NCBI GenBank assembly: GCA_016748015.1
Contig: JAAOMT010000503.1
Coordinates: 145,325-209,324, forward strand
Length of the DNA: 64,000 bases
Source of the DNA: Geosiphon pyriformis uo1
Lineage: Eukaryota; Fungi; Glomeromycota
Direction: 5' to 3'
The notes below the pieces were generated by a model. It was not told where the DNA came from and made no database searches. It saw nothing but the letters and a program-made list of their open reading frames with translations. The translations under genes and the position numbers were made by a program. Shown one piece after another: positions 1 through 44,639 of this stretch (its first letter is position 1; every line of letters begins with the position of its first letter).

Positions 1-563
1 TTGGTAGCTAATCAATTTCGAAATGTTAGTTGGGTTTTGAAGATTTTCCAAGTACAATAATTAAAGAATTTGGTTTTTCAAATTATTTGATATTTATTTC
101 TTTTTGTGTGTAGAGGGATGGTTTTTAAGAGATAAATCTAAGATAAGATACATTTTCTCAAAGAGAGGAGCTCTTCTTTTATACAACTTGTCGTAACACT
201 ATTCTATGAACTTGAACTTTGCTATTTTCTAAAATTTCACTGAACTAAAGATACATTTCGGCAAATTACAAGTTATTTTGGCAAACTATTAGATATTTCG
301 GTGAACTATCAATTATTTCGGCAAATTTCTACAAATTTTGGTGAACTTCTGAATGTTGCATAGTTCGGGGTATTGCATGATTGATTATCGCAATTAAGTT
401 ACATTTGTGTTGTGTACAATTTGGGTTATTAATTAAATGATAATTTCAGACATTTTTGCTAATGTAATAAGTGATCATTTGAAATGATAATATATGCTAA
501 TTAATGATAGGAATTATAAGATAATTTCATGCTAAATAATATCTCTAATTTTGTCTGGTAACA
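1..563 (-). repeat. 3' LTR of element A (partial)
   Basis: Begins TGTTACCAGAC at 563 on the minus strand, directly after the PPT; matches the 5' LTR. Confidence 0.95.
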
Positions 564-2897: not shown

Positions 2898-3924
2898 NNN
2901 NNNNNNNNNNNNNNNNNNNNNNNNNNNNNNNNNNNNNNNNNNNNNNNNNNNNNNNNNNNNNNNNNNNNNNNNNNNNNNNNNNNNNNNNNNNNNNNNNNNN
3001 NNNNNNNNNNNNNNNNNNNNNNNNNNNNNNNNNNNNNNNNNNNNNNNNNNNNNNNNNNNNNNNNNNNNNNNNNNNNNNNNNNNNNNNNNNNNNNNNNNNN
3101 NNNNNNNNNNNNNNNNNNNNNNNNNNNNNNNNNNNNNNNNNNNNNNNNNNNNNNNNNNNNNNNNNNNNNNNNNNNNNNNNNNNNNNNNNNNNNNNNNNNN
3201 NNNNNNNNNNNNNNNNNNNNNNNNNNNNNNNNNNNNNNNNNNNNNNNNNNNNNNNNNNNNNNNNNNNNNNNNNNNNNNNNNNNNNNNNNNNNNNNNNNNN
3301 NNNNNNNNNNNNNNNNNNNNNNNNNNNNNNNNNNNNNNNNNNNNNNNNNNNNNNNNNNNNNNNNNNNNNNNNNNNNNNNNNNNNNNNNNNNNNNNNNNNN
3401 NNNNNNNNNNNNNNNNNNNNNNNNNNNNNNNNNNNNNNNNNNNNNNNNNNNNNNNNNNNNNNNNNNNNNNNNNNNNNNNNNNNNNNNNNNNNNNNNNNNN
3501 NNNNNNNNNNNNNNNNNNNNNNNNNNNNNNNNNNNNNNNNNNNNNNNNNNNNNNNNNNNNNNNNNNNNNNNNNNNNNNNNNNNNNNNNNNNNNNNNNNNN
3601 NNNNNNNNNNNNNNNNNNNNNNNNNNNNNNNNNNNNNAATTTCTAAATTATTTAATAAAATTATGGGGTAATTATTGGGGTTGTAAAAAGTAACTCGGAC
3701 TTTCTTTGTTCCTTCTGGAATATAAATGTTTGGGATCAAAATATTATGTTCCAAGCAGATTTGTTCATTGGACTCAAAAATTTGTTGTGTGGTTGTTGGC
3801 TTTGTGCAAGTGTAAATTTCTGGATGTTTTCCAAAGGGTGAGATGGTAATTGGTTGTGGAAGTCTGAGAATCTGGTGGGATTTGTTCTGTGTGTTAAGAG
3901 CTATATTAACTGGAACTGTGAATC

Positions 3925-4352
3925 GTCCAGTTAAACCAAAACCTTGAGTTCCTCTATCGCTTTTTCCTAATTGTTCTCTTTGATTGACTAGTTGCAAACC
4001 CGAAATGTTGATTAAGGATAGGTAAATAGCTTGGGCAATTTTTTCAGCATGTTTGATCTTGAATAGTTTGTCAGTCTCATTTTGAAGCATCACTGTTATG
4101 TCTTCAGTATATCCAGCATCGATTATTCCTCCTCTGACATTGATTCCTTTGCTTGCCAGAGAGAACCAAGAGGCGATTTGAACCATTGCTCTTGGTGGGA
4201 TTTTGAGTGCAATTTTGAGATTGATTTTTGTGAGAGATTTGGGTTTGAGAACAAGAGTATCCTTGCCTGGATATCTTAGGTCATATCCAGCATCAATTTC
4301 ATGTGCTTTTTCAGGTTTTATTCCTTGTCCGTTGTTGTTAAAGTATTTAAGT
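3925..4352 (-). pseudogene. dUTPase domain of element A
   Basis: Trimeric dUTPase motifs DAGYDL, [R]SSL-like (ASWFSLASKG), GGIIDAGY, KIAQAI, RGTQGFGLTG. Confidence 0.9.
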
Positions 4353-4439
4353 TGTAAGGCAGGCTGATTTTCGATAAGGTAGATGAGTGTTGTTTCAATT
4401 TCTTCCATTTCTTCAGGTTCTCCAAATTCAATTTCATTC

Positions 4440-5075
4440 TCATTATTTTCGCTGGGCAAGGGGATACTAAGAGCATAGCATTCGGAACACCATTGTTCAT
4501 CGCAAAGCAAAGTGCATTCTTCACATAGCCTAATGTTCATTTGCTCTAATTGTTGAATTTGAGCTTCTTGGGTCAGGTAGGTGTGACTTGCAATTTGGTG
4601 ATAGACTTCTACTTCATCTTCATAATCAAATCCAGCTAATTCCATAGTGTATTCAATGTATTCTGCTTCTTTCATCTGACGAACATCTTCTTTGGTAGCT
4701 CCATTAATTAATGCCATTGCTAAGTCAAAAATCATCTCGGCATCATGAGGGTAGTGATAAAGTTTGTTGAGAGCACTGTTGTATGCTGCATTAAAGGGTG
4801 TTCCTCTTTTTACTTTTTCTGAAATTGATAAGACATATTGGCAGGTCTGATCACAGATGCCTCTTCTCATTGCTACATCAATCCAATTGCATTCTTCTGG
4901 TAGCATATCTCCACAAGTCAAACAAGCAGTGTTGTCCCATTTTCTGCTCCTTTTTATTAGATGGCCCCATTGTTCTCTGTGGCAAGCCTTGCAGTAATAA
5001 CAAGTGTGATTCTCATATTCTTCTTCAGGTGAAATGCAGGCTCTCATTGACGATAATTTCTTGTGGCAGTCCTTA
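4440..5075 (-). pseudogene. Cys-rich putative zinc-binding domain between protease and dUTPase (element A)
   Basis: CYYCKAC, CLTCG, ICDQTCQY, CEECTLLCDEQWCSEC; the same pattern recurs in C and D. Confidence 0.7.
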
Positions 5076-5194
5076 CATTTAAGGAGAATATAGGGGCATT
5101 GTTTTCTTAGTTCAGGTTTTGAGTAAGGTATATTTCATCCAGAGGTTTCGGGTTTAGTGTGTGGGGTAAAATGTTCTTGTTCTGTTTCATCGGC

Positions 5195-7753: not shown

Positions 7754-8732
7754 TGTTACCGGAGGTTTTTGGTCTCTTTTCTTAAATGTTGTTGATGCTT
7801 GTTTGCTGTGAATTCACGTTTTCTGGATGTAGTTGAACCTCCAGTAACTGAATTTATCTTCAAATTATCTCCTATAATTTGAACTGCTGGGCTTATAAGT
7901 GGAATGGCCAATTCCTTGCCAGTTGCTTTATGTAGTTACATTGTAGTAAACGTCAACTCTTTCCCAGGAATTGCTCATCTGGAAGCTCACTAAAAATGTG
8001 TAGTTACTTTACTGTGAAAGTCAACTCTTCTACAGGGATCTCGTCTGTAGGCTACCCTAATGGTTGTAATAAGAAAAGAAAATAAAATAAAAGAAATGTA
8101 AAAGAAATAGAATTCTGTCAAGGGAAACATTTTCTATCCAGGCCTGGAGTTACTAACAGTTTACTGAAATTGGTAGTTAATCAATTTCGAAATGTTAGTT
8201 GGGTTTTGGGGATTTTCCAAGTACAATAATTAAAGAATTTGGTTTTTTAAATTATTTGATATTTATTTCTTTTTGTGTGTAGAAGAATGGTTTTTAAGAG
8301 ATAAATCTAAGGTAAGATACATTTTCTCGAAGAAAGAAGCTCTTCTTTTATACAACTTGTCATAACACTATTCTATGAACTTGAACTTTGCTATTTTCTA
8401 AAATTTCACTGAACTAAAGATATATTTTGGCAAATAACAAGTTATTTCAGCAAACTATTAGATATTTCGGTGAACTATCAATTATTTTGGCGAATTTCTA
8501 CAAATTTTGGCAAACTTCTGAATGTTACATAGTTCGGGGTATTACATGATTGATCATCGCAATTAAGTTACATTTGCGTTGTGTACAATTTGGGTTATTA
8601 ATTAAATGATAATTTCGGACATTTTTGCTAATGTAATAAGTGATCATTTGAAATGATAATATATGCTAATTAATGATAGGAATTATAAGATAATTTCATG
8701 CTAAATAATATCTCTAATTTCGTCTGGTAACA
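7754..8732 (-). repeat. 5' LTR of element A
   Basis: Inverted termini TGTTACC / GGTAACA; matches 1..563. Confidence 0.95.
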
Positions 8733-8800
8733 ATACCAACATCAACACCAACAAAACACCAACAAACTTAACAACAAAACAAACAACAAGATTAACAACA

Positions 8801-11146
8801 ATGAATCCAGAAAACTACAACAACATTAAAAACTATTTGGAGACTCTCACCATGCCAGAAAATTGGTTTCCAAGTGAAAAACATCGATTACAACACCAAT
8901 CCAAACAATATTTTATACATCATAACAAAATATATTACAAAAATTGTAAAAACCCAAACCAACCACTCAGATTAGTACAGGAAAATGAAAAAGAAACAAT
9001 TCTATACAACATGCATACAGATCCTTCTTCAGCATACTTGGAAAGAGATAAAACAATTCAAAAAACTCTTGAACATTATTTTTGGTCTCACATGCAAAAA
9101 GACATTCGACAATATATAGAATCTTGTGATAATTGTCAAAGAAGAGGAGGAACTTGTCCCACAGAACCTTTAAATCCAATCAAAGTTGGACAATCTTTTG
9201 ACAGAGTTGGAATTGATTTAGTCGGACCATTACCTATCACAACCCAAGGAAATTGTTATATTGTAGTTGCAGTGGATTATCTTACCAAATGGCCTGAAGC
9301 TAGAGCCATCCAAAAAGCAGATGCAAAATCAGTAGTAAATTTCATCTATGAAGACATTATCTGTAGACATAGATGCTATTACCAGACAAAATTAGAGATA
9401 TTGTTTAGCATGAAATTACCCTTATAAATCTTATCATTAATTAGCATATATTATTGTTTCAAATTATTACTTATTACATTAGCAAAATGTCTGAAATTAT
9501 TATTTAATTAATAACTCAATTTGTACATAACACAAATGTAATCTAAGTGCAATAATCAATCATGCAATACCCTGAAATATGTAACATTCAAAAATTTGCT
9601 GAAATTTGTAGGAATTTGCCGAAATAATTAATAGTTCACCGAAATATCTAATAGTTCGCAGAAATAACTTGTAATTCGCCGAAATGTATCTTTAGTTCAG
9701 TGAAATTGTAGAAAAGAGCAAGTTCAAGTTGTATAAAAGAAGAGCTTCTTTCTTTGAGAAAATGTATCTTACTTTAGATTTATCACTTAGAACCATTCTT
9801 ACACACACAAAAAGAAAAAAATATCAAATAATTCGAAAAAAACCAAATTCTTTAATTATTGTACTTGGAAAATCCTCAAAACCCAACTAATGTTTTGAAA
9901 TTGATTAGCTACCAATTTCAGTAAACTATTAGTGACTCCAGGCCTGGATAGAAAACGTTTTCTTTGATAAAATCCTATTTCTTTTACATTTCTTTTATTT
10001 TTCTTTTCTTTTCTTATTATAAGCATTAAAGTAGCTTACAGACGAGATTCCTGTAGAAGAGTTGACTTTTACAGCAAAGTAACTACATATTTTTAGTGAG
10101 CTTCCAGATGAGCAATTCCTGGGAAAGAGTTGATGTTTTCTACAATGTAACTACATAAAGTAACTGGCAAGAAATTGGCCATTCCACTTATAAGCCCAGC
10201 AGTTCAAATTATAGGAGATAATTTGAAGATAAATTCAGTTATCGGAGGTTCAAACACTTTCCATAGTCGTGAATTAACAGCATTACAACAAACATACAAG
10301 AGCTAAGAAGAGACCAAAAACCTCTGGTAACAATGCTCAATTGAACTCTTATCTGATTAAGAAACACATTTTGTGAACAACTTGATACAAGAAATTTGTG
10401 AACAGTTCAATGTCAAAAGACTTCTATCATCACCTTATTACTCTCAAACAAATGGACTTGTAGAACGTTTCAACAGAACATTGTGTGAATCTCTAGCCAA
10501 AGTCTCAACAAACTTTGAGCAGAAATAGGATATCTTTATTTCATCAGTGTTACTAGCATACAGAATGCTAAAACAAGATACTATGAAACACACACCATTT
10601 GATTTTATTTATAGAAGAACAGCAACATTACCAATTAATTTCACAGTGGAAACATACCCAGTGCAACTAATTAATAAAAAAAACTTTCAAAAAACACTCC
10701 AAAAAAGAGCCTACACTCTTCTTAGTACACTGGAAGAAAAAAGAAAAATAACAGCAACTCATATTGAACATTTCCAAGCTCAACAAAAAGAAAGACATGA
10801 CAACAAATTACCATCTATTACCAACAAATTTAAAGTTAGAAATAAAGTTTTCTTACACAGAACTAAGGCCGAAAAACAATGGAGTGAGAAATTTGAAAAC
10901 AAATGGGATGGACCATTTTATATTCACAAAATTCTAGACAATGAATCATACAAGTTAAGACTTGATGATAAAATACTAGCAAAAGTTGCACATGGAAACA
11001 GATTGAAACACTATCATTCCAAAAACAATCCTGAACCATTAATTCCACAAATTGGTACACATTTCTTTTTAATTAATCTTAAAAATATTCCCCGAAATTT
11101 AGAACCAATAATTATAATAAAACAACAACCAAACTTGAACACTTAA
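8801..11146 (+). pseudogene. Integrase of element B, split by a solo LTR
   Basis: MNPENYNN...HTDPSSA...CDNC...GIDLVGPL...ICRHRC, then solo LTR, then SIELLSD...GLVERFNRTL...KWDGPF. Confidence 0.93.
9377..10332 (+). repeat. Solo LTR of the element-A subfamily with 4-bp TSD ATGC
   Basis: T(A)TTACCAGAC...GGTAACA flanked by ATGC at 9373-9376 and 10333-10336; removing it restores the integrase sequence seen in A. Confidence 0.95.
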
Positions 11147-11291
11147 ATTTTACAATAATTTTCTAATAAAAACACAAAGACAAAAATAGTAAATAAATTA
11201 CAAAAACACCCAAACCCAAAAACAAATAAAAACTCCATATTCCAAAAATAATTTTCTTTATTCTCTCTTTTCATAATTAGTCAATTTTATT

Positions 11292-11999
11292 ATGATTATT
11301 CTCCGAAATATTCAACAAATATCCCAAAAATTAATGTTAGTCTTAAAAACACTTCCTGACTTATCCATAATGATTAATGGAAGTCAAATTAATTACATTC
11401 AGAAAGAAATCACAGCTCCAGTAGCAAATCATTCACAGAACTATCCCTCCTATAGAAGAAAAACAAGAAGTCACTCTGAAAATAGGTTACCAAGACTTTT
11501 GAAGCAAGCACTAAAAGAAAATCTTTTAATTGCCCCTATTGACATTCCACCAAATGCTACAATGCAACAAAAACTTCTACTACTTTTCAATGAACAGAAC
11601 AATGAACACACCCTTATCTATAAATACTTTCACATTGGAAAGACACTTTATGAACAAAAAATGGAACTTGAAGCAACAAATCTCACTCCTGAAGCTATAC
11701 AAAAACAAATCCACAATGAATTCAAAACAGCAGCTGGACCAACAAACACTTGCTACAAACTTAGAGCAGCTTTTAGACTCTATGATTTGTTTAATACTTG
11801 TGAAAATGTTTTACAAAATCCAATACTGCAACCAATGAAAGTCCAATACATTGGCAAACTCACAGAACTGAAATTTCAACAATTTTCAGACCAGATTACT
11901 TCAATTATTTTGGATCACTATCTCAATATTACAGATAGTACTTGGATTTTGATGGAGCTCAGTCTTGAAAAGGAGATTATGTTACTAGTAGAATTTTAG
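11292..11999 (+). CDS. ORF3, 235-aa accessory protein of unknown function between integrase and 3' LTR (open in element B)
   Basis: Uninterrupted ORF with ATG; runs through the PPT and ends 20 nt inside the LTR; homologues at the same position in A, C and D; no obvious signal peptide or TM helix. Confidence 0.75.
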   Translation: MIILRNIQQISQKLMLVLKTLPDLSIMINGSQINYIQKEITAPVANHSQNYPSYRRKTRSHSENRLPRLLKQALKENLLIAPIDIPPNATMQQKLLLLFNEQNNEHTLIYKYFHIGKTLYEQKMELEATNLTPEAIQKQIHNEFKTAAGPTNTCYKLRAAFRLYDLFNTCENVLQNPILQPMKVQYIGKLTELKFQQFSDQITSIILDHYLNITDSTWILMELSLEKEIMLLVEF

Positions 12000-12992
12000 C
12001 TATTAATTAGCATGAAATTACCCTTATAATTCCTATAATTAATTAGTATATTAATATCATTTCAAATTATTATTTATTATTTAATCAATTATCACATATT
12101 ACGATTCAATTAAAATAATCTAATTAGTATAACAGAAAGTAAGATGATCAAATTACACAATACTCTGAACTTTGTAACATTATAAAATTCGCCAAAATTT
12201 ACAGAAATTTGCTGAAATTTATAAGAAATTTGCTGAAATTTACAGATATTCGCTGAAATTATAAATAGTTCATCCAAATTAATTAATAGTTCAGTGAAAT
12301 AACTTGTAGTTCATCAAAATGTATCTTTAGTTCGCCGAAATTTGAGCAAAGAGAAAAAGTGCAAGTTTATAGACTAGTACTACAACAAGTTGTATAAAAG
12401 AAAAGCTTTTCACTTCAAGAAAATGTATCTTACTTTAGATTTATCACTTAGAATCATTTCTACACACACAAAAAGAAATAAAATATCAAATAATTTGAAA
12501 AACCAATTTCTTTAAATATTGTACTTGGAAAATCCCCAAAAACCTAACTAACATTTTGAAATTGATTAGCTACCAATTTCAGTAAACTGTTAGTGACTCC
12601 AGGCCTGGATAGAAAACGTTTTTCTTAACAGAATTCTATTCTTTTATATTTCTTTTATTTTTTTTCTTTTTTCTTATTATAATCATTAGGGTAGTCTACA
12701 AACAAGATTCCTGTAGAAGAGTTGACTTTTACAGCAAAGTAACTACACATTTTTAGTGAGCTTCCAGACAAGCAATTCCTAGGAAAGAGTTGACATTTAC
12801 TACAACATAACTACACAAAGCAACTGGCACAGAATTGGCCATTCCACTTATAAGTCCAGCAGTTCAAATTATAGGAGATAATTTGAAGATAAATTTAGTT
12901 ATTGGAGGTTCAACTATTTCTAGAAAATGTGAATTTGCAACCAACAGACATTTACAACATTCAAGAAAAGAGACCAAAAATCTCTGGTAACA
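11980..12992 (+). repeat. 3' LTR of element B
   Basis: TGTTAC at 11980 after the PPT; ends GGTAACA at 12992; R/U5 very similar to the A LTR, U3 diverged. Confidence 0.93.
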
Positions 12993-14209
12993 TTGGCCAC
13001 TTTGAATTCATAATATTTAGATTTGTGGTAACTCTTCTTGACACTTGAAATGTGATGCAAAATAACATTAACCCAAACTCTATTACTAATCATAAGATGA
13101 ACTTTGGAAGCTTCCATTTCATTAATGGTCAACCAAGTATTAACCAGATAGTCAACTGTCAAACCCAGCTCTGAACTCAAACTTTTGACAATCTTGAACA
13201 ACAGCAGTTCCAACCTGAAAAATTTTGAAGATAACTTATTTCTAGCACAATTGAACTTGTTATACCAGAGCCGAGAAAAAATAATATTAGCAGAATCAAC
13301 CACCACTTCTCTGAGAATCTCTCACATCACATCCAAGTCGCCACTGTGTTCTGCATTAAAAAACTTCTCAGCTTTCACCAAAAATCTCCTTGAAAAACAC
13401 AACCTAAAACATTTCCACCCACTATCATCCACCTCCTTCAAATTGAACTTCCAACAATCTTTATTAGTCTGTTTGCATGCATTGTTCAAGTGAACATTCA
13501 GAAGGCCCCCCAAGCCCACAGAGATGGAAACAGCACTATAATCAGTATCAAAAAACTCAGAAATGGAACCAAAATTATGGCCAGCCACTGCTAAAATAAA
13601 ACTCTTGCTAACAAAAATGTAGTCAATAACTCTATTAACACCCTTAGAGTTGTTCTATATAGGTGTACTTGCCAGAGAATGATCACCAAAAGAATTAACT
13701 AAGCTCAAATTTGAACAAAACCCAAGACTTGCACTTCTTCTAGCTCTATCCTCATTAAAATCACCACCCAAGATGACAAAAGTACTAGAATTAACCACTC
13801 AGGCAATAAAAGAATTGATCTCTGAGGCCAGACTAAATCTAACACCAGAAAAAACACCAGCGTATAGACCGATAATTGAAACTGAAGTTCTGTCCTTGAA
13901 GAAAAAACAAACTGAGACAACACAACCAGGAATCTCCTTCACCTTTGAAACATAACATGCCAAGGAATTGTTCATAATAATAGCCACACCAACACCAAGA
14001 AAACTCTTATCCAAACCAGAAGTAAAAATCTGCACTCCATTGAACTTGTTCATGATCCAAGGCCTAATGTTACATCTCAGCTTTGTTTCTGTTATTATTG
14101 AAATCATATTCCCAGAATCCTTGTGCCAGCGCACAACATCTTCCTGTTTAGCAAGCACATTGATGCCCTGAACATTGCACATAGCTATTTTCCATATCAA
14201 ACTACTCAT
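12993..14209 (-). pseudogene. LINE-1 ORF2 N-terminus (APE endonuclease)
   Basis: IAMCNVQG, ITETKL, LGGDFN, IDYIF, DTDY(H) motifs. Confidence 0.9.
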
Positions 14210-16082
14210 TGGGATGAAGAAAAAGACAAGGGACCTGAATCAGCATACAAGTGATCTAATTTTACCAAAACTGAACCAACAAAAGCTTTAAGAGCCACCA
14301 GTTTAGATTTCAAACTGCCAACTTTAGTTGTCAAGACTTTTAAGCTGTTTAGACTCAAGATTGACACACTAGAGGAAGCAGATGAGGGGAGTGAAAGTAC
14401 CAACTCAAGACCATCCACAATTATATCCAAAGCCAAATTTTTCTCGGCAGTAACAAAGGTAGCTGAAACTTTAGAGGAAGGAGATAGAGCTTGTGGCACC
14501 AATTCCATGTTGCTGAGCTTACACACAATACCAGAAACTTGGTCAGTCAACAGCTTCAACGATTGTTCCAAAAAAGCCAAGTGAGCATCCAAAGATGAGT
14601 TGTCAACCAAAGCAAAAGAAAGACCATCATTTAAACCTGAGATGCCAGAAGAAGGAGAACCAAAGCCAGAAGTAAAGTGAAAACTATCAGAAGAACCAAC
14701 AAGTGAGACTACCTGGGCCCAAAATTTGCCATCAAAGGCAGTGAGGCGAGATATCAAAACACTTTTTTTCTCATACAAATTCACCAACTAAAGACGATGT
14801 TTATCAGATGTAACTTTTTTAAATAGCTTTGAAGACTTAGAAATGGACACAGTAAGTACATCACATTCTAAAGCAGAATGTCCAAACTTCCCACATTTCT
14901 TATACCAAACCAGATCCAATTTTGTCCAAGAAAGTTTTATCTCATTAAAGACAGGCTCTGTAAGAAAGGCAGATTCTAGATTATTATTAGAGGCAAAACT
15001 GACTATCACACAGCAAATCCTATTACCATTTTCTATGAATTTGTTTATGATGCATGTTTTCCTACCAGCCTTTTTTAAAAGATTGCCCAAATATGAGCAG
15101 TTGTTCTCACAGGTAGAGTAAACAGAAGTGCTCTGAACCGATCCTTAGATGCCCAAGTCTCACAATCCCCTACTGCTTTGGCTACATGCACAGAATTTTT
15201 ACCAATCAGAAATGACTACTTTGAGGCCAACAAATCAGCTTAGTCTATTTCAGCAAACTCCACCACAGTCTTTTGCCACATTTCAATTAATTGAATTCTG
15301 ATCAACTTAATTTCCCCAAATTCAGATACTATGGTGATGATCATATCTTTAGGCGTATTCATGGGAATTTCCTTGATTATCACAGCCTGATCTGATCTCA
15401 TTCCTTGTTTTTTAAGATTATTGTTTACATCAATCCCTTTTTCTCTGGCCAATGATGTGGCCATTTCCATGCTTTCTTCAGAAGTAAATGTTGATCAGAT
15501 AATCTCTTCAAATTTTGAGGGGGTAGTGGCCCCTCTAAAACCATTGACTGTTGAAAAATTTTTTCTAATTAACTAAGTCTTTGCCATTGCCAATTTATCT
15601 TCTATAGCTGAGAGATTAATATCCAAAGCAAATGACTTTTTAATTGACACTTCCATAGAAGTCTTGATAATTTTAGGGTCAATCCACTTTTTTTCTAGAG
15701 AGATAGACAAGTAAGAAGGGAGCACCACTTCTTTATCATCCATATAAAAGTTGGGAGAGCCAAGTAGAAAACCAAAGCCAGCACCAGTGTTGACTCGCTT
15801 TGCCTTGAGTGTAGTAACAGCTGAGCCCAAAAGAGACTCACCATTCACTTTAGACATGCTAACATCCTCATCCTCACCAGATAGACTCTTCACATCAAAA
15901 TAAACACTGCCACTAGATCCAGATTTGCTCAAAAATATATCCCTTTCATCACCAGAGTATTTTATATTGTTAAGAACAACTTTTTTCTTCTGAGAAAAAA
16001 AGCCACCAGCAGAACCGTGAAAAGCACCCTTAGGAGCCTTCTTCTTAAGTGTGGTGCTACTAGCAGTAGCCTTCATATCCAC
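14206..16082 (-). pseudogene. LINE-1 ORF1 (RRM-like repeats, CCHC knuckle, C-terminal coiled coil)
   Basis: AVIIKEIPMNT...SEFGEIK...VVEF; [C]KKCGKFGHSALEC; heptad-like LAFLEQSLKLLTDQV. Confidence 0.85.
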
Positions 16083-16173
16083 GAAAAATGGGTTATTATT
16101 AGGTGAAAAAATATTGATATAGATTAAAAAAAACAAAAAACTTTTTTTTTTTTCAGAAAATGCACTTTTTCAG

Positions 16174-17057
16174 TATTACTCATAGAAAAAACAGATATAG
16201 AAAAATAATAGACCAATAGAAAAACAGTATGTAGCATGTGAACACATTGCTTAGCAATGTAGAGCAATGATAAAAATCACAGCACATTGCTTAGCAATGT
16301 GGAGCAATGTCAGAAAACATGGCACATTGCTCAATAATATGAAGCAATATTAGAAAATAAGAGCACATTGCTCAACAATGTGGAGCAATATTAGAAAATG
16401 AAAGCACATCACTCAACAATATGAGCATTGCTCAAGAAATTATAGCACATTGCTCAGGAATATGAGCGATCTCATAGAACATCAATTATGTATATATAGT
16501 GATAGCATTAAAAGTAGAAAGAACAGAATTCATTAGTTAAAAACCTTTCACATTACAAATATCAATAAATAATTATTTACTATCTCAATTCACTCTCCAC
16601 TATTAACACTACATATTAATAGTAATTGATACTTAATCACACTAGAACAATAGCTCTTGATCATGGCTATTGATGGGATATTAACTTGCAATTGCTTTCA
16701 TTTATTTCTTTATTTTTCTTTTATTTTTTTTGTTTTAGTATTTCTTTGGTTTTACTAAAAATTAATTAAAGATTAAGTGCTGTCATAGTAACTGGTAAAA
16801 AACCCATAAAACAAGGGTAAAACACTTATAGATTTGAGAATAGCTTACCAAGAAGATTATTAGCCACCACACTGAGAAAGAAATTTGACAAAACTGTGAT
16901 TTTGGGAAGCTATAGATAAAATCATCAATTAAAATCTCTGTCTATTATACAAAGAACTCTACAACAAAACTTTCAGATATCAACATCTGAGTATCAACCA
17001 AGCACCAAGTTACGGATTTGTTATTTGACCTGAGATCCCAAATAATTATCTGTAACA
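16174..17057 (+). repeat. 5' LTR of element C (six 40-41-bp palindrome-containing units at 16243..16470)
   Basis: T(A)TTACTCATAG...TGTAACA followed by TTTGGTGCTC. Confidence 0.95.
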
Positions 17058-17059
17058 TT

Positions 17060-17077
17060 TGGTGCTCTCTGTAAGAT
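17060..17077 (+). promoter_or_regulatory. Primer-binding site of element C
   Basis: TGGTGCTCTCTGTAAGAT, 2 nt after the LTR end. Confidence 0.8.
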
Positions 17078-17117
17078 ATAATCCTACAGAGAACCAGCAC
17101 CAACAAATAAATCAACA

Positions 17118-20105
17118 GTGGCAGATTCAGAAAGTATAAGAGCAAACCATTTAGGATTTGCAAAATTCTTATTTCAACACTACTGTCAACACTTGGAATT
17201 GAACTACAATCAGATATCAGCAAAATCAGCCTTCAATTTCTATGTCAACAAAAGAATTGCCTATTTTTTAAGAACACCAGTAAACACTAAATCAGCGAGA
17301 GAAACTTTTTACCACGAATTAATCCAAAACACCAGCTTACTAACAAATTATAATTTTGCATCCATTATTACTGAGATTAATAAAGAAATTAAATATCACA
17401 CACAACAAAGATACTCAATTACTTATGCCAGTAAAGACAAAGAAAAATTACAAACACCAGCAGTAACACCTCAACAGATCCAACTACTCACTTGGAAAAA
17501 ACACAGAATTGAATTACCAACAAATTCATCATATCACTATATACCTGGAAGTGCTATCAACATCATATCAACAGGCACATCCACATCAAATACAACATCC
17601 ACATTTGGACACTTCTCATTTCAGAGTAAACAGAAAAAAGAAGATCTTTTAGGACCATATAGTGTGTATTTCAAAGAATTTAAGTCACAATCGCCAATGC
17701 CATTAGGACTTCAATTTTCACTACTGTAACCAGATTTCGGAACTGCGAGTCTCTGGGAAGTAACAGATTCGGAAGAAGAACAAGAAGAAGAGAAAGAAAA
17801 ATCTGAAGATCAAGAATTTACTTACCAGAACCCGATTCCAAAAAACTTGAACATTGAAACCCTGAATTTTCAGACTCAGCAAAATCCAAATTTAAAAAAT
17901 CCAGAAATTGAGACTCCGAATTTCCAAATGCAGCACCATCAAAACAATCACAACTCTGACATCAATAATCAACAACACTTACCTCCAGTAATCATGATTA
18001 ATTCAGCTCCACCAATTGACAAACAGCAACAGCAGCTACTTCAACCATCTCAACAACCATAGCAGCCACTTCAACAGCCATAACAACAACTGTAATAACC
18101 AAATGTTGATCCAATGGCTTACGCTCCGATAGTAAAACTTAAGAAATTCACCGGTGAAAAAAACGACACCCAAGTGTGGCTAAACAATGTGAAAAAAGCC
18201 ATCATAGCCAATGGCTGGAATAATGCCAGAGCCATGCAGGCCATTTCTTATTTTTTCCAAGATACCACCAATTTATGGTATCAAAGCTTGGCTAACAAAC
18301 CCCAAGATTTTGCTGCATTTAAGCTTGCATTTCTACAATATTTCAGCAACAATAATAGTATTAATCAGCTAGCAAACACTTTCACCACTATCAAACAAAG
18401 GGAAAATGAAGCAGTCACTACTTATCTAGGACACTTCCATAGAAATCTGCACCAGATTCAAGCAATCCAGGCTGACTATTTTACAGTGCTCCAAATCCTA
18501 AACCAATTTATTAGAGGTCTGTATAGTAGCATCTTCCAACGCATATGTCCAATGCATCCAACAGACCTTCAAGCCATAGTTACCAACACCTGAGATTTTG
18601 AAGCAGCTAAACTCGAAGCTAACCATGCCCAAGCTATTAACCTAGTAATGAATGGATCATCTGAATTGGATTCTAAATTGAAACAATTCAGTGATTCAAT
18701 TAATCAGAAATTGGAAGGATACTTAATTGACAATCATGCAATTTATTAATCACCACAACAATGCAATAATTCAGAAAACCTGAATTGTTTCCAAAATCAG
18801 TTACATCTATCATCATCAAATCAGTTGTGGCAACAAGAGACGCATGTTTGCCATAATTGTGATAAACAAGGCCATATTAGAGCCAACTACTGATTTTATA
18901 ATAATAACCCATGATTGGGAAATCAATATCAAAACTCCAATCCCTGGTTTTCAACTCCAAATTACCAATCCAACCTAGCACTATATCAACCGACTTACCT
19001 GTTAATGACACAACAGCCAATATATCAACCACCCATATATCAATTTCCAGTTTATTAACCACAGCCACTGGTAATATATCAATCACTGCAGCCACAAATA
19101 ATTTATCAAACACCTGCAGTTCAAACACTACCATCAAACCCCACTCAAATGACATCAGGAAACTCTAGATTGAGAGTCATCCAAAACTGGAAATCGGTGA
19201 TGGTTGTTCACCAACTGATCTCCAGTTCATTCAACTAGCTGTTAGAATCACAACAGCAAAGTTCAGGAACTGGGTATACTTAAAACCCGAGTTTCCAGAA
19301 CTATTTAAGTCTTTTGGTTATCACAGAAGATGCCTCACCCAACACTTGGGAACCCAAACAGAAGCAATCACTTACCAATATTCTGCCAGCTACTGTCATG
19401 GAAAACGAGTCTCTAGCAGCTATATTTCCCTTCAAAATTGAGGAACTGACAGAAACTCCTTTGTTCAGTAGAGCCACACTCAAGGAAAAACCTATTACAG
19501 CAATGTACACAGATGTCAAAATTGATGGTCAGTCTATCAAACTGATCCTAGATAGTGGATCAGCCAGCAGCATCATCACAAGACAACTCATGGACCAATT
19601 AGGTCACCGAGTTGATCGAGCTGCCAGTGCAAAAATAATTACAGCTGATGGAGCCACCAAGACTCTAATTGGTGAAATAGATAACTTGCCCATAGAAATC
19701 AATAGTATCACTGTACCAATTAAGGTATTAGTCATGGAAGCCACTCAATACCAAGCACTAGTGGGTAATGACTGGCTGTTTAAAATCAATGCGACACTTG
19801 ACTGGAACACCCAAAAGCTCCAGCTTAGCCAGAATGGACAATACACACGTGTACCAGCCATGTATAACCATTTCAAACCCATCACTATGCCATCAGCTCT
19901 ATTTATCGAATTTGAAGAAGAAAAAGAGAAACCTACTTGGGAAGCATACCAAATCTCTTGGGCCAACAAAGACCACAACAAGCTACCACCAATACTTTCT
20001 TGGAACAACAAGGGAAAAGAAAAGAAAAACAAAGAACTTACCTGGAATACCAACCAAAACTGGGAAACAGATAACAACCAAGATGAACCAGCCAACTGGA
20101 AGTGA
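17118..20105 (+). pseudogene. gag (long N-terminal extension, capsid from 18114, CCHC knuckle near 18848) and protease of element C
   Basis: MAYAPIVKLKKFTGE...VWL...FKLAFLQYF...NQFIRGL; CHNCDKQGH; LILDSGSASS...ALVGNDWL. Confidence 0.9.
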
Positions 20106-20219
20106 AAAGAAACTGATAAGAGAAAGGGAAAAGAGAAAGAAGAAGAAACCACTTTCATCAACAGCACTTATAGTTCAGATGTTTACACTTCATCACTACC
20201 ATTCAATTATTGTCAACCA

Positions 20220-21830
20220 AAATTGGAATGTGTCAATTGCAGCAAAAAATTGTCATTAATGAGTGCATATTGTGGTGATGACAAAGAATACTCCATGGCC
20301 ACAAGATTCTACTGCTGCCCATGTGTTATAAAGTGCTTTGGACAACCGAAATGACAAGGAAAGTGGAATAACCAACTATGTCTCACATATGGAACTATTC
20401 TACCTGACAAAGAAATATGGAATAACATTTCTGGGCATAGAGAAACATGCAACAAGACATACCAGTACACCATACTAATAAACAATTAGATAAGCAAAGG
20501 AACACCAATTAACAATGCATAGAAATGAGTGTTGTGATGATTAAAAGAATATCCCCACAATGAAGATGAACTATAGAGAATAGTGTATGCGAAAGCAGAA
20601 GACGTGACAACTAGCGAATTACTAGAGATTAAAAATAATCCTCTATTTCTTCCTGAACCCAAATACATTCAAACTTTTGATGTCTTTGGCAACATTGAGG
20701 ATGACCCAGAAGAATTTCATGAACATTATCAGCATTTGGCATCTACTAGGGAAGAACAAGAGCAGTATTTAGAACAGTTGAACACTTGATTATGTTAACA
20801 TTGCTTAATTCTATATGACTTTCAGTATTGTAATGAGTGTGACCTCATTTACAATCTATCACCACACATGATCTACATAATCTCAGAAGAAGATGAACCA
20901 ATGAACAGCTGTGCATCCGAATTGAAATCAATTTTCAATCCCAATTCAAACTCCAACAACGATGATGATGAAAACAATGGTTCCAGCTTCACTCCAAATA
21001 GCAATGAAAATGACAACGATTCAAACTCCAATTCAAATCCTGAAACATTTATCATACTTCTTAACCTTTTCAAAGAACAGGAACTTAAATGGTTCAGCGA
21101 TAATGATAAAGATATCATGCCAGAACGCATGCATGATACTAATACAGGATTTGATCTAAGATATTCAGAGAAAGATCCCATCAAATTGGAACCACATTTG
21201 CGCACTTACATCGATCTGAAAATAGTACAGCAACAACAATAGTTCAACTAGCATCCAGGAGTAGTTTAGCAAAAAAAGTGATAAACATTAGAGGAGAAAT
21301 AATTAATGCAGGATATGTAGGAAATATCATTGCTATGCTACAAAATAATTCAGAAAAAGCATATACTATAAATTCAAATGAAAAGATAGCACAGACAATA
21401 TTCCTACTTTTGGTGAAAATAGCTCAATTAGTGTTAATGAGAAACAGAGAAGAATTAGAGATTACTGCTAAAGAGATACAGAGATTTAGATCAATGGAAA
21501 AAATAGATGTACCAGTTAATATGGCAGAGGAAAAAATTATTGACAAAGGAGAAATTATCTCAATCCATCAATCAATTTCTGTTTCATCATATGACCAGTA
21601 TATGTTAGCCATAAAAAGAAAAGTAAAAGATCAAGCTCAATTGTTTGAAGCAGAAGCCATCATTTGTGAATCAGGAGAGATTGAACTCACTAATTTCTAC
21701 ATATTAGCCAAAAGCCCCAAAAACATCAAAATTCCCATCTATAATGCAACTGGAAAGATCATTGAAATACCAAAAGGAACTATCATTGGATATTTAACCA
21801 CTCAAGTTGAGGATCAACCACCAAACCACA
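20220..21830 (+). pseudogene. Cys-rich domain, dUTPase (about 21085..21500) and a second degenerate beta-rich dUTPase-like segment of element C
   Basis: CVNCSKKLS...FYCCPC...YCNECDL; TGFDLRY, ASRSSLAKK, INAGYVGNI, KIAQTI; then IPIYNATGKIIEIPKGTIIGYL. Confidence 0.8.
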
Positions 21831-21949
21831 TTCCAGATTTTCCACAACTTTGCAGATATGTGGACATTACATTACAGACTATATATGGATGAAGTGAATG
21901 TTATCTAATCAGAACAATTGGAACAGATCAACATAGGAAATCTAGATCC

Positions 21950-23325
21950 ACTCCAACAAATGCAACTAAAGATGTTACTTAGCAATTTCAATGACATCTT
22001 TACAAGTGAAAATGAATTTGGCCGCACCAATATCATTTAGCATCAGATCAAGACTGGAGATACAATGCCAATTAAGCAAAGAGCATATAGAGTATCACCA
22101 ACTAGCCATGAGATCATTCATTAAGAAATCAATTAGATGTTCGACAATGGGCTAATTCAGCCATCAATAAGTCCATGGTCGTTACCAGTAGTACTAATCT
22201 GAAAGAAGAATGGAAAAATTTACTTTTGTGTAGATTACCAAAAATTGAATGGAGTAATCAAAGGAAACAGCTACCTAACTCCAAAGATCCAAGAACTATT
22301 CAACATCTTTGGAGAAAATAAATGATTCTCAACACTAGATTTAAATAGTGGTTACTAGCAAGTAGTCATGGACCCAGCTGATAAAGAAAAGACTGCATTC
22401 ATGACAAGAGAAGAGAATTTCGATTTGAAGTTATACCATTTGGCTTAATAAACACTCCAGTGACATTCCAATGACTCATGGAAATTGTCTATACTAGATT
22501 ACTATGAAAATCAGTAGTCATATACTTAAACAACACAAATGTATTTTTTAAGACATTTGATGACCATCTACATCATCTCCAACAAGTGTTTGAAAGACTC
22601 AGACAAGCAGGATTGAAACTAAATGCCAACAAATGCTTCTTTGGCAAAACTGAGCTCAAGTTTTTGGGACATGTAGTAAGCAAAGATGATATCAAAACAG
22701 ATTCAGATAAGATTACAATAGTAAAAAACTTTCCAGTACCAACAAACTTGCCAGAACTAAGAACATTTTTGGGATTCACAGGCTATTATTGCCACTTCAT
22801 CAAGAACTTTTCTAAACTAGCCCAGCCACTTCACTATCTACAAACCAAGAATGTGAAGTATGAATGGACTGAAGCTCAACAAGAAGCATTTGACATATTA
22901 AGAAGAAAGCTTATTCAAGCTCCAATATTGATGTATCCAGACCACAGCAAACCATTAATCCTCACTATGGATGCATCAGGTCAAGCATTGGGAGCAGTAC
23001 TATCACAGAAAAGACCAGATGGAAGAGAACATCCAGTAGTTTATGCTAGTAGAAGCTTAAGTTCAGTCAAAAAAAACTTTGAAATACCAACACTAGAACA
23101 TTTAACAATCTATTGGGCAGTTATGAAATAGAGAGAATACTTGAGCCAAAAGTTTGAAATATATATGGATCACAAGAGATTGACTTCAATCCAGAAACAA
23201 AAATTTGCAGATGATTGCCATGCCAGATGAAAAATAGAACTTTCATCATTTAATTATACAATACATTATAAAAAAAAAAAGACAATGGAAATGTTGACAG
23301 ATTGTTGTGAATGAGACAAATCTAA
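21950..23325 (+). pseudogene. Reverse transcriptase and RNase H of element C
   Basis: SPWSLPVVL, FCVDYQKLN, PFGLINTP, decayed YLDD (YLNN), KCFFGKTELKFLGHVV, DASGQALGAVL, YASRSL; many stops and frameshifts. Confidence 0.92.
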
Positions 23326-23355
23326 AAACATTTCAACCCAAAAATATAACAAAAC

Positions 23356-24714
23356 ATGAATATGCAAAAATACCAACAACTTCAACATTATATAAATACT
23401 CAATTGTTCAAGGAAAAATTATCTCAAAAAGAACAAAACAACATAAAACAACAATCAAAATATTTTATTAATCATCAAAATATACTTTACCAAAAGAACA
23501 GAAGAAATCCAGATCAACCAATTAGAGTAATCACAGAACCAGAAAAAGAGACAATATTATTCAACATACACTCAGACCCAACAGTAAGACATTTTCATAA
23601 AGAAGCAACCATGGAAAGAACCAGAAAAAGATACTATTGGCCATTAATGTATTCAAATATCATCCAATATGTTCAAAATTGTGATGCTTGTCAGAGAAGA
23701 AGAGGAACAAAACCCAGTGAACCATTAAGACCAATCAAAGTAGGACAACCATTTGATTGCATTGGAATTGACTTAGTTAGATCATTAACAATCACCAGCA
23801 AAGGCAACAGATATATTACAGTAGCTATAGATTATCTCACTAAATGGCCAGAAGCAAAAGCCATTCAAAGAGCAGATGCAGAATCTGTTGCCGAATTCAT
23901 TTATCAAGATTTGGTTTGTCAACATGGATGTCCAAAAAAACTACTATCAGATCAAAGAACTCACTTTGTGAATAGAACACTGGCAGAATTAAGTCAAAGA
24001 TTTGAAGTTAAAAGACCATACCATCCACAAACCAATAGACTAGTTGAAAGATTTAATAGAATACTGTGTGAAGCAGTTGCCAAGATCAGTCAAGAAAACC
24101 AGAATAAATAGGATTTGTTTATACTATCAGTACTATTTGCTTATTGGATAATGAAGCAAGACACTACACAAGCAACACCATTTAAATTAGTATATGGTAG
24201 AACAGCAACATTACCAGTTAAGATAGAAGTCAACACTTATCCAACAAAACCAATAACTGAAGACAATTTTCAGGAAATGTTGCCAAGAAAAACATATAAC
24301 TTGATGGAAACTCTAGAAAACAAGCAACGAAAAGCAGCTGATAATATTTAAAAGTCACAAGAGAAACACAATAACCAACTACCAGACAAACCAGTTGAAT
24401 TCAAGATTGGAGACAAAGTACTTCTACATTGTACTAAAGCGGAAAAACAATGAAGTAAAAAATTTGACCCGAAATGGAATGGACCATTTCACATTAAAAA
24501 AATTCTTGGAAATGGAGCTTATAAATTAAGATGGGACAACAGAATTTTAGCCAAAACAGCACATAATGATTGATTAAAACCATATCACCAAATAGTATCA
24601 TCATCTACTAATAACATTCCACAACTGGGAGTACAAAAAATATTAGTCCAATCAGATGAGATTCCATGAGATCTGAAACCAATCATAGTTATTGAACCAA
24701 ACACGTCAAATTGA
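23356..24714 (+). pseudogene. Integrase of element C (separate ORF)
   Basis: HSDPTVRH...CDAC; GIDLV; SDQRTHF; LVERFNR; KWNGPF. Confidence 0.92.
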
Positions 24715-25418
24715 ACAAACCAAAGAGTATATAAAGACACAGTATATACGACAAAAGCAACCAAGAAAAATAGAAATACCAGATCATATTCACACTATAG
24801 CTCAACAATTATTCCAGGCCTTAAGTGAACAACAGTTAGACATGGAAATTGTTATTAACAACCAAATAATTTGCTATTAAAACAACCAAAGAAAAACAAA
24901 GAATACACCATACTAGTGACCACCAAAAAACAATAAAAACTGGACAGATAACTTAATAGAAAAAGTGAAAAACACTTTTGGAAAAATTCTTGTTATGACA
25001 TCAATAGAAGAGCTTATGAAAGAAAATTGGAAGCAATGGACAGAACGACTTCCAATATCATATTGTTACTACCAATTAAGTCAAAAGTTGAATATTCAGG
25101 AGTTGTATATCAACAAATCCAAGAGAATATTCAACCAAAACATAATACAACAAATTGAAAAATTTATTGGAAAAAAACAAATTTAACACTACATGTTAGA
25201 ACAATATACTGACTATACAACATATTTTGGAACTATCCAGAAGTACTGTTACACTCTGACATGGAAACCATAACCATCAACCAATGAGGAAGAATGAACA
25301 ATACACAAGTAGAAGATGTGAGAAACAGAGTCAAACAAACAATACTTGAAAAAGAAGTATTAAAATTAATTCAAAACAAAGATTTTAACAGAGCTCAATA
25401 TTAAAAAAGAGGAGATAA
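24692..25418 (+). pseudogene. ORF3 of element C
   Basis: Fragments ...LPISYCYYQLSQKL...IEKFIGK...RTIY*LYNIFWNYPEVLLH...ITINQ*GRMNNTQVEDV align by eye with ORF3 of B and D. Confidence 0.7.
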
Positions 25419-26271
25419 TGTTACTCATAGAAAAAACAGATATAGGAAAATAATAGACCAATAGAAGAACAGTATGTAGCATATGAGCACATTGCTCAGC
25501 AATGTAGAGCAATAATAAAAATCACAGCATATTGCTTAGCAATATGGAGCAATATCAGAAAACATGGCACATTGCTCAACAATGTAGAGCAATGTTAGAA
25601 AATAAGAGCACATTGCTCAGCAATGTAAGCATTGCTTAAAAAATTATAGCACATTACTCGGAAATGTGAGCAATCTTGTAGAACATCAATTATGTAATAT
25701 AGTGGTAGTGTTAGAAGTAGAAAAAGCAGAATCCATCAGTTAGAAACCTTCCACATCACAAATATCAATAAATAATTATTCATTATCTCAATTCACTTTT
25801 CACTATCAACACTACATATTGATAGTAATTGATACTTAACTACACTAGAACAATAGCTCTTGATCACAGCTATTGACAGGATATTAACTTGCAATTGTTT
25901 TCGTTTATTTCTTTATTTTTCTTTTATTTCTTTTGTTTTGGTATTTCTTTGGTTTTATTAAAAATTGATTAAAGATTAAGCGCTGAGATACAGATGTCAT
26001 AGTGACTAGTAAAAGACCCATAAAACAAGGGTAGAACACTCATAGATTTGAGGATAGCTTATCAGAAAGATTACTGGCCACTATACTAAGAAAGAAATTT
26101 GACAAAACTGTAATTTTGGGAAGCTATGAATAAAACCATCAATTAAAATCTCTGTCCATTATACAAAAAACTCTACAACAAAACTTTCAGATATCAACAC
26201 CTGAGTACTAACCAAGCACCAAGTTACGGATTTGTTATTTGACCTGAGACCCCAAATAATTATCTATAACA
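25419..26271 (+). repeat. 3' LTR of element C (five repeat units)
   Basis: TGTTACTCATAG after PPT AAAAAAGAGGAGATAA; ends TATAACA. Confidence 0.95.
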
Positions 26272-26609: not shown

Positions 26610-27500
26610 TAAACATCTATGTTTGTTTATTATTAATAATCTTAGCCATATAAACAGAATTTTTTTTATAAACATTAACTACTTAACTATAACCAAGTTA
26701 ACAATTTCAAATAATTTAAATTTCATTTAAGTTTTTTACCAAAGACCAATAAACTGCATTTAATTAATACAATCTTATTAAATTTAGAAAAAACTAATTT
26801 TATAATTAATTTAAAAAAATTAACAGAAATTTTTTAACAATTATTTTCTAATCTAAACAGTTATTTACTTTCTTAATATTAATATTTATCAAAATTTTCT
26901 TACTAATAACCAATTTTTTAATCTTATTTAGATTTAATTTTAACATAAAAAATAATTTGATAATTTTTGAATTTTTAAAAAAATAGATATTCTCCCAAAA
27001 TTATTTATCTAAAACACATAATTTGACCAATAACAATTGTTTAGAGCCAATAAACTTAAAATTTAGAAGTAACAAAATATTATTGTTATTATTACTCAAA
27101 TTATCAAAAAAAAATTTTTTAGCTTGTTGTTCAAAACATATATCTTAATATATATTTTTTTAAGCATAGCCTTATTTATTATATTATTTATTTTTAAATT
27201 CAAATTTACATAGCTAGTTTTCTTAACAAATGTGTTTTTTATATTCTTAATATTTAAAATCTTACTAATACTGTTTATTTTACTGTTGACTTTGCTACTC
27301 TAAAACTTTACAGACTTAGAGTCATCAACTTTTATATTACTAATATCTAAAAAGTTAACAAACAATTTAATAACTTTATTATTAACAACAGACTTTTTTG
27401 GTTTCTTATAGAACATATTATATAAATAAACATTTTCAAAATATTTGTTCTTAATATTAAACCAGGTTTTCAATTCAGCCAAATCAGAATTAAACTATTA
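26610..27500 (-). pseudogene. Extremely AT-eroded LINE ORF1 fragment
   Basis: Manual translation VFSKFNKIVLIK-MQFIGLW*K...EFKLFEIVNLVIVK*LMFIKKNSVYMAK matches the ORF1 segment SEFGEIK.IRIQLI.MWQK.VVEF...KWSFLI.KNSVRMAK of the other LINEs. Confidence 0.7.
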
Positions 27501-27517
27501 GTAAAAAAGTCTATTAG

Positions 27518-29830
27518 TTTTTTTTTTTATTGCTTAATAAATACAGCCCAAAAGCCAACCTAGTACAATACATCAAACTAAATGATCTAAACTAGGCATT
27601 AAGCATGTGCTTTTTACATGTAACTAATTACTTGGACCAATTAAGAATACACTACACTAAAGCCTTAAAAGAAAACTTATTCAAAGAAAACATTCTTTGA
27701 ATAATTTCAAACAATGTAGTACTATCAATCAATTCAACTAGTCATTTAGCTATTTTAAAGACATCAGTCTTTACAATAGCAGATTCATGTTTTCAAAAAG
27801 ACATCAAGTTAGAAAACACCTTATCACTTAAACCAAACAGATGCTCTGAATCACCAGACATATTAACATCCTTTATGCAACATTTTTTTTAAAGAAACCA
27901 CTTTTCTTCTCAACTTATCAACAATTTTACTAAAGAAATCCATATGTATCATAACCTCATTAATCCTAAAGCCAAGATTACTGCTTGAGATTAAATCCCT
28001 ATTAATAAATTGTTTAAACAATTTGACCAAAGAACCAACTGGTTTAACAATAGACTCAACCAAAACAGAAAGCTTAACCAAATCAAATTCCAAAGAAGCC
28101 AATTGAAAAGACATCAATAAATTATTAACAACCATAAAAAGAGGAGTAAAAACTGCCAAAAAAAAAACTCAGAAGAATTCAGAGAAACAAAAGCCTTTAC
28201 ATAAAAAACACCACCTACAAAACATGTTTTAAACATCTTAGGAGCCTTAAAAGAAGAAAGTAGAGAAACTTTGCAGTCTATAATTAGATGGTCCACTTCT
28301 TGACACTTAAAGCAATGCCAACAACCAGAAGTTTCTCACCAAATATAGCATTTTTTTAAGATACCAGTCTTGATAACTGCAGAATCCAAATCAACTTGAG
28401 AACCAAATATAACCAGAGCAAACTGGAAATAATAATCAGACTTAGGAGAATGAAAAATGAAACATGTCTGACTACCAACTTGGGAAATTAAATTACTAAT
28501 CTCAAAAGCAGTGCAGCAAGAAGAAAGATTGACCAATTTGGTCTTAAATTTATCATGAGACAGAATAGTCTCATTTTAATTCATCAAGGAGAAAATTCTA
28601 ATACTATTCTTGCCTACCAAAACTAATTAATGATTTAAAGCAGACACAACAAAATTCAACTTCTCAAAATAAACAACTACATATTGCCAAATGTCAATAA
28701 GCTTTAGCACAACATGATTAACCATACCAAAAACACTGAAAGCTGTCTTAATATTAGCAGCAGACACACCTAAAGGCACATTATGCAGCACAACAGCAGC
28801 AGAAGGGAAGCCAAACTCAGAAATCACCAAAGACTTGGCAATTTTAAGAGTGGCAAGATGAACAGAGCTTGAAAGCTCGACCAAAAATGCAGCATTCAAA
28901 GAGTTTTGGGAAGCAAACACCATACAAAAAAGTTTTACATTGTCTTTTACAACTGATTTCACATTCAAAAAACCATGCACAGATTAAAAAACAGCTCTAA
29001 CATAAGCCAATTTAATCTTAAAAATAATACTAGACACCAAAATAGAGACTATCTATCCAGCAAATCTTTGATAACTAGTAATAGTTTCTCAAGCACTACT
29101 AACAACAGCATCAGAAACCAGAGGAGAAGATGATTCAGTTTCTATTTGGTCAGCCCAGTTCTTAATAACAGATGACACCACAGAAGATGATTGTTTTATT
29201 TCTAAAACCAATAATAATCTGTTAAAAAACACTATATTTGACAATTCAACCAGTAGTTGATCTTGGCCCATCTTAGATAATATGTCAGATAATACAACAA
29301 AAATCTTATTTAAGATCTTATTTGAAACCACAAAGGAGTTCGGTGTAACAATAGCAGAAACAAGCAATTGCTCCTATTTTTCTGAATTTTTGGTCTTTTT
29401 GACTATTTTTTTTGAAGAGGAGGTGCTAAAAGCAAACATTAAAGCTATAAAGAAAAATACCAACTTGTTAACTGGTCTATTATTAAACACTTTTAGACTC
29501 TTAGTAGGGATGGAGACAATACTGGAACTAACCCAAGTGTGTTTTTTTGAAAGAATTTTTACTGATAAAAAACCAGCCAAAGATGGGGAGGTTGCTTTAG
29601 TAGCTACCAAAAACAGCTTTTCACAATTACTAAATAAAGGGAATACTTCTAAAATGTTCTGTCTGGTTGTTTTTACAACAGAAAAAGCTTCTCTGGTTGA
29701 AATTTTATTAGATATCTTAGGAAAAATATTAGATACAGCTTTTTCACTCTTTGCTCTGGTCATAGTCATAAAATTAAGAAAACAAAAAGTTTATGATTCT
29801 ATTAGTTTTATAATCACAAACAAAAATATG
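27518..29830 (-). mobile_element. ORF1-only non-autonomous non-LTR element (HAL1-like), copy 1
   Basis: One decayed ORF of about 2.1 kb, followed directly by the LINE-type 3' UTR (27531..27651) and poly(A); no EN or RT sequence. Confidence 0.85.
27652..29769 (-). pseudogene. ORF1-like protein (RRM-like repeats, CCHC knuckle, coiled coil) of HAL-like copy 1
   Basis: MTRAKSEKAV...VVLHNVPLGVSAANIKTAFSVFG...WQYVVVYFE...CFKCQEVDHLIIDC...LASLEFDLVKLSVLVESI. Confidence 0.8.
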
Positions 29831-30354
29831 TTAAAAAAAATAGTTAAAAAATATAAAAAAAAGGGAAATAAAAAAAACTATTTTTTTATAAAAATCTTAT
29901 GTTTTTATTACAACCAGAAAATTAGCAAAAAAAAACTTTTTAATTATAATATTGTGATTATAATTAATATAATTAAAAACAAATCAATTGATTATATTTT
30001 TTGGTAATTATTTTTAAATAATAAATACAGATATAAAATATTAAAACATAATAAAATTTGTTGTTATTAAATTACATATATTAATTTCTAATTTTTATTG
30101 GCATTTTTTAGATTGTCAAGTTTTTTGTATCTAATTTAGATTTGTAATTAAATTGTATTATAATTGAACTAATTGTTAATTTGTTATTATTTTGTTGTTA
30201 ATTAATATTTATTAAATTAATTTTAATAATATAATTTTTTTTACATGTTTTTAATATTAATTTTTATAATATATATTGTAATTTTTTGCATGAAAGTATT
30301 ATATTTAATTTAAAATATTATAATAACATTATAAATTAAAAATAGTATTTATTT

Positions 30355-32620: not shown

Positions 32621-32852
32621 TTCTGTTGCTGCATTTATTTTTTGTTTAATTTTTTATAATTTTATCTATTTTAAATTTAATATTGCTAAAAACCAAAATC
32701 AATTTATTATTATTATTATTATTTTTTTATTTCGTTTAACAAATGCAGCCCAACCACTATCTAGTATACAGATACAAGCTAAGTAAATCTAACTAAATAT
32801 GGCTCACACATTTGCTACATGTGACTAGTCACTCAGGCCAATCTAGGCAATA

Positions 32853-40277: not shown

Positions 40278-40278
<1 letters not shown>

Positions 40279-40338
<60 letters not shown>

Positions 40339-44636: not shown

Positions 44637-44639
44637 TTA

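Follow-up and report, generated by a model that had tools for sequence, protein, structure and literature searches.

Foamy virus Tas (Bel1) is encoded at the 3′ end of a long terminal repeat (LTR) element, and the worm element Cer1 reportedly carries an extra 3′ open reading frame (ORF). More generally, elements with an additional ORF close to the 3′ LTR are already known from plants, worms and rotifers, and self-recognising regulators from foamy viruses and VANDAL transposons. Here we analyse a window of 64,000 nucleotides from the fungus Geosiphon pyriformis (contig JAAOMT010000503.1, positions 145,325–209,324, forward strand), in which four Ty3/Gypsy LTR elements (A–D; dUTPase-type or related, identified by self-alignment and LTR alignment) each carry a gene at their 3′ end, ORF3, next to a tandem array of palindromes in the U3 part of the LTR that its product might recognise.

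The closest described systems resemble this locus in different respects. Tas binds and activates response elements, both in its own LTR and in its internal promoters (PMC517496), but it belongs to an enveloped animal retrovirus and we saw no sequence or fold link to ORF3, whose putative binding sites are regularly phased palindromes. VANC of the Arabidopsis VANDAL elements is element-encoded and has family-specific short motifs in tandem repeats, with protein and motif changing together (PMC5735166). VANDALs are DNA transposons, however; the VANC21 motif YAGTATTAY is arrayed in one orientation in several non-coding regions, and binding and demethylation by VANC21 have been demonstrated (PMC5735166), whereas the palindromes of the putative ORF3 system are confined to U3. 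In plant Retand elements, TRP28 lies between pol and the 3′ LTR, is predicted to bind DNA, has family-specific repeats nearby and has been proposed as a regulator; it is antisense and plant-specific, with repeats in the internal region (PMC11963269), whereas ORF3 is in sense with arrays in U3, and it gave no TRP28 match in Pfam. LTR elements of bdelloid rotifers likewise have a dUTPase between protease and reverse transcriptase (RT) and family-specific non-env ORF3s, but theirs are GDSL esterases, DEDDy exonucleases, coiled-coil or transmembrane proteins (PMC5408684). By analogy, the system described here would work like Tas and VANC yet belong to neither. A preliminary description of the locus knew of nothing similar in fungal Ty3/Gypsy elements; the literature that we searched (few subscription journals, no supplements) held no account of ORF3 or of such a fungal LTR-element system, and ORF3 is apparently an accessory gene so far undescribed.

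ORF3 as a selected accessory gene

All four elements have a homologous copy of ORF3 between their integrase and 3′ LTR, as the preliminary description had proposed, and the copies can be aligned over their whole length, beyond the C-terminal pattern that it had picked out by eye. Only the copy in B is intact; the other three of the four are broken. The limits first given for C (24692–25418) and D (44640–45500) proved slightly wide and are narrowed here.

11292–11999, plus strand: ORF3 of element B, intact, 235 amino acids, continuing past the polypurine tract into the start of the 3′ LTR
532–1085 (end approximate), minus strand: ORF3 of element A, with two stops and the first ~55 codons deleted relative to B
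24770–25404, plus strand: ORF3 of element C, with five stops and one frameshift near 25175
44652–45440, minus strand: ORF3 of element D, a single frame with five stops

A search with the B protein found 202 relatives among 481 candidates, a profile of C, D and metagenome sequences 46 among 3621, and the C query 10 among 23. All 120 of the ORF3-B relatives among the matches listed are labelled Geosiphon pyriformis. Four ORF3 proteins come from metagenomes, not from G. pyriformis; because they terminate in the stretch that in A/B translates the polypurine tract and LTR start, they likely hold the same position in related elements. D-type ORF3s fall into two subfamilies, proteins P0156 and P0146 versus P0165, P0168 and the D copy of the window.

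Between A and B the ratio of non-synonymous to synonymous change (pN/pS) is 0.27 over 172 codons, equal to that of integrase (0.24–0.28) and below the neutral values simulated with the transition bias of this genome (medians 0.52 and 0.59, lower bounds 0.39 and 0.43); more distant ORF3 pairs (0.61–0.65) are too saturated to be informative. When one contig is compared with ORF3-B, 22 of the 28 listed differences (34 in total) fall at third codon positions. ORF3 is a real, selected accessory gene, under constraint like that of integrase.

We rejected an errantivirus-like env as an identity for ORF3 because hydrophobic segments are missing, in agreement with the first reading: peak 19-residue hydropathy is 0.44–1.29 in the five full-length proteins tested, and none of the five has a hydrophobic signal or transmembrane segment. 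At the polypurine tract, the sequence GAGCTCA...GGAG...TGTTAC is kept in all four families (11950–11999, 25390–25425 and 44630–44670) and is read in differing frames, with A/B ORF3 continuing into the LTR and C/D ORF3 stopping just before it; the constraint there is therefore on DNA or RNA. Just 5′ of the ORF3-B ATG, a pyrimidine tract followed by TAG (11255–11291) forms a possible splice acceptor that is absent from C and D.

Palindrome arrays in U3 and their co-variation with ORF3

Each U3 array is specific to its family. In a motif scan of the LTRs tolerant of C>T and G>A decay, TTCG-N-CGAAAT matched 6, 6, 6 and 7 times in the four A/B-type LTRs and 0 times in the four C/D LTRs, at spacings of 20–21 bp or multiples of these (one match in the solo LTR lies outside the array). 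The C motif, CACATTGCT-N-AGCAATGTG, matched 6 and 5 times at 40–41 bp (mean 40.6), and the D motif, ATAAC-RY-GTTAT, 4 and 5 times at 20 bp with one step of 50; neither occurs elsewhere in the window. The periods reported initially, 20 bp in A/B and D and 40–41 bp in C, are thereby upheld, and phasing in the B, C and D arrays is 10.0–10.2 bp per turn. Dinucleotide shuffles (300 for each of three LTRs) gave means of 0.02–0.09 matches and maxima of 1–2, against 5–7 observed, a contrast whose significance is overstated in that the motifs were derived from the very LTRs scored.

12188–12341, plus strand: U3 array of element B, TTCG-N-CGAA, seven scored units and one degenerate, mean spacing 20.4 bp
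12393–12399, plus strand: TATA-like box of element B, 3′ of the array, its function inferred

Six of the seven full LTRs have such a TATA-like box 3′ of the array. Pairwise transversions among A/B units are 0–3% in the core compared with 42–43% in the spacer, a pattern that fits sites held by selection. The D array stands as first described, but its RY centre has been re-read, as the centre letters vary in the way that CpG decay of ATAACGCGTTAT would produce.

ORF3 and integrase trees both group A with B and C with D. Integrase identity is 74–78% for A–B and 78% for C–D, and ORF3 identity is 72% and 31%, respectively. Tree distances for ORF3 versus integrase are 0.34 versus 0.32 (A–B), 1.55 versus 0.27 (C–D) and about 3.3 versus 0.87 (A–C), the row for C being a decayed copy with a somewhat lengthened branch. 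ORF3 diverges at about the integrase rate between A and B, which share a motif, and 4–6 times faster where the motif differs, and the available comparisons fit an ORF3 whose divergence tracks motif change. Between C and D, ORF3 and U3 are the most divergent block (50–58% identity, 19–27% transversions, versus 1–6% transversions in RT and integrase). The preliminary description had placed the differences in exactly these two parts; a third stretch, the Cys-rich segment of pol (C about 19960–20550; 60–62% identity, 17–22% transversions), and the R region (18% transversions) have diverged as well.

A candidate self-recognising regulator and its alternatives

The fold of ORF3 offers weak leads towards a ParB/DUF1016-like DNA-binding domain. 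Its core is predicted to be all-helical with a helix–Gly–helix centre.

11547–11927, plus strand: helical core of ORF3-B, seven predicted helices (AlphaFold2 pLDDT 90.2, pTM 0.83)

In its pattern of a Y-x-IG helix, a middle helix, a Gly turn and an R/K-L/F-Y helix, this core may resemble DUF1016_N, DUF3102 and the ParB helix-turn-helix; those domains are prokaryotic, however, and the function of DUF1016_N is itself uncharacterised (PMC1189080).

We consider it quite possible, though short of probable, that the ORF3 product binds the U3 palindrome array of its own family and regulates the transcription of that family. ORF3 would be made apart from gag-pol, since it has its own start codon (and, in B, not in C and D, the candidate splice acceptor). 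The protein would enter the nucleus by a putative basic proline–tyrosine (PY) motif, bind the phased palindromes of its own array and regulate the LTR promoter, presumably in a positive sense, by holding open a promoter that is prone to methylation. Activation or protection is plausible because transposable elements of the related fungus Rhizophagus irregularis are mostly CG-methylated, the expressed ones less so (10.1101/2021.03.30.436303); the opposite sign, repression limiting copy number, would look identical in sequence. ORF3 and U3 likely move as one adjacent module, so that protein and sites would remain together through recombination. Still more tentatively, we hypothesize a swappable lock-and-key module, in which a ParB/DUF1016-like DNA-binding protein is paired with its own array and, in a methylated genome, each family activates no LTRs but its own.

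Several observations weigh against this proposal. HHalign gives DUF1016_N a probability of 7–11% and the other domains at most 2% (DUF3102 1–2%, HTH_ParB 0.1–0.15%), all below significance, and block-shuffled controls scored up to 24.8 against DUF1016_N. Among structural matches, Spo0J came only 11th, amid unrelated helical chains, and the best named Atlas matches are a closterovirus coat protein and an RNA-binding repressor family. Three of the five full-length proteins tested are acidic overall (pI, isoelectric point, 5.4–5.9), and only 41 of 75 full-length A/B proteins have the PY motif. Because ORF3 adjoins U3, a single recombinational swap could explain their joint divergence without binding, and the motif classes compared number only three. 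The ORF3s of C and D are sisters with much of the putative recognition helix and the next motif in common, despite which their palindromes are unlike in length and letters. CpGs number two per A/B site and none in the main units of C, which weakens a general anti-methylation account.

The D palindrome bears on a further possibility, which we regard as real but rather doubtful: that host transcription factors use the arrays as ordinary U3 enhancers, with ORF3 doing another job and the co-variation arising from adjacency. U3 is the fastest-changing part of the LTR and carries host-factor repeats, and the divergence of C and D in the third segment and R also favours this account. Given how its centre letters vary, the D palindrome likely includes ACGCGT, the MluI cell-cycle box and MBF site, and almost all fungi have kept SBF/MBF factors (PMC4862756); in plant Retand elements, moreover, extra ORFs commonly have family-specific tandem repeats nearby (PMC11963269). 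Against this, three unrelated factor classes would each need a palindrome array with equal helical phasing in an equal place, the ORF3 rate rises 4–6 fold only where the motif changes, and the window lacks further copies of the C and D motifs, although it holds little host-gene sequence. Of the interpretation originally offered, the selected non-env gene, the exclusive arrays and the divergence that tracks the motif all stand; the dimeric DNA binding and the transactivating or anti-silencing role that it also proposed are hypotheses, and a host factor may yet account for D.

It is unlikely that ORF3 acts instead on element RNA, complementary DNA or the particle (in export, packaging or integration targeting), with arrays that are structural and serve nucleosome positioning or bending: bending has no need of dyad symmetry or core-specific conservation, and the Atlas and fold matches are likewise below significance. 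Least credible by far is a chance or decaying frame beside neutral slippage products, since the three broken copies in the window are to be expected of dead elements (216 of 223 LTR-pair differences are transitions), the integrase-like pN/pS contradicts it, and homology across four families and metagenomes, a confident fold prediction and array cores conserved beside diverged spacers all speak against it.

The elements, their surroundings and implications

The window is AT-rich, with a CpG observed/expected ratio of 0.22. The four elements listed initially are all present, together with an additional solo A-type LTR.

1–563, minus strand: 3′ LTR of element A, truncated by the window start; array at about 234–345
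7754–8732, minus strand: 5′ LTR of element A, which is inserted into element B; array at about 8403–8514, with the primer-binding-site (PBS)-like TGGTGCTC next
8797–11146, plus strand: integrase of element B, interrupted by the solo LTR
9377–10332, plus strand: solo A-type LTR with 4-bp target duplication ATGC; A/B array at 9595–9706
11980–12992, plus strand: 3′ LTR of element B
16174–26271, plus strand: element C
16174–17057, plus strand: 5′ LTR of element C; array CACATTGCT-N-AGCAATGTG at 16243–16464
17058–24709, plus strand: gag, protease, Cys-rich segment, dUTPase, RT, RNase H and integrase of element C, degenerate (Pfam)
25419–26271, plus strand: 3′ LTR of element C; array at 25488–25668
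43708–53918, minus strand: element D
43708–44636, minus strand: 3′ LTR of element D; ATAAC-RY-GTTAT array at about 44400–44531
52996–53918, minus strand: 5′ LTR of element D; array at about 53700–53812

The Ty3/Gypsy domain order (gag, protease, dUTPase, RT, RNase H, integrase; Pfam) was read from C, with which D is collinear; the RT of A falls at an assembly gap and that of B outside the window. Paired LTRs, PBS, polypurine tract and target duplications are all present: LTR ends are TGTTAC...GTAACA (some decayed), TGGTGCTC follows all three 5′ LTRs, and the solo LTR and D have 4-bp target duplications, with three of four bases matching at C. LTR pairs differ by 4.6%, 9.5% and 12.8%, and because these differences are mostly transitions, commonest at CpG, the elements are decaying copies. 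Element A and the solo LTR are nested insertions (8705–10335), both in the integrase of B and about 600 bp apart.

A dUTPase lies within pol in C (21155–21889, plus strand) and A (3641–5134, minus strand) according to Pfam, and the rotifer paper also mentions dUTPase for basidiomycete LTR elements (PMC5408684). Between protease and dUTPase, the Cys-rich segment (3641–5134, minus strand, and C near 19960–20800) has many CxxC pairs and no match in Pfam, and could represent a zinc-binding module not yet described. On the 5′ side of the gag capsid domain, C and D both have an additional conserved frame (17082–17726 and 52364–52873), with no convincing Pfam match. Degenerate LINE-like (long interspersed nuclear element-like) sequences with endonuclease, RT and RNase H surround the LTR elements on the minus strand (13000–16170, 27500–43700 and 53900–59100), and a low-complexity frame rich in Ser, Arg, Pro and His (62579–63367, minus strand; no Pfam match) resembles the beginning of a host gene.

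Should ORF3 bind its own array, these families would provide three natural orthogonal protein–site pairs within one genome, a direct test of transposon escape from silencing and perhaps a eukaryotic DNA-binding domain of a new kind. LTRs make up 41.2% of the G. pyriformis genome (PMC11952901), and a lock-and-key module, if true, would help to account for this expansion. If the binding proposal turns out to be wrong, one retrotransposon gene family still explains hundreds of ‘hypothetical proteins’ in the G. pyriformis genome.
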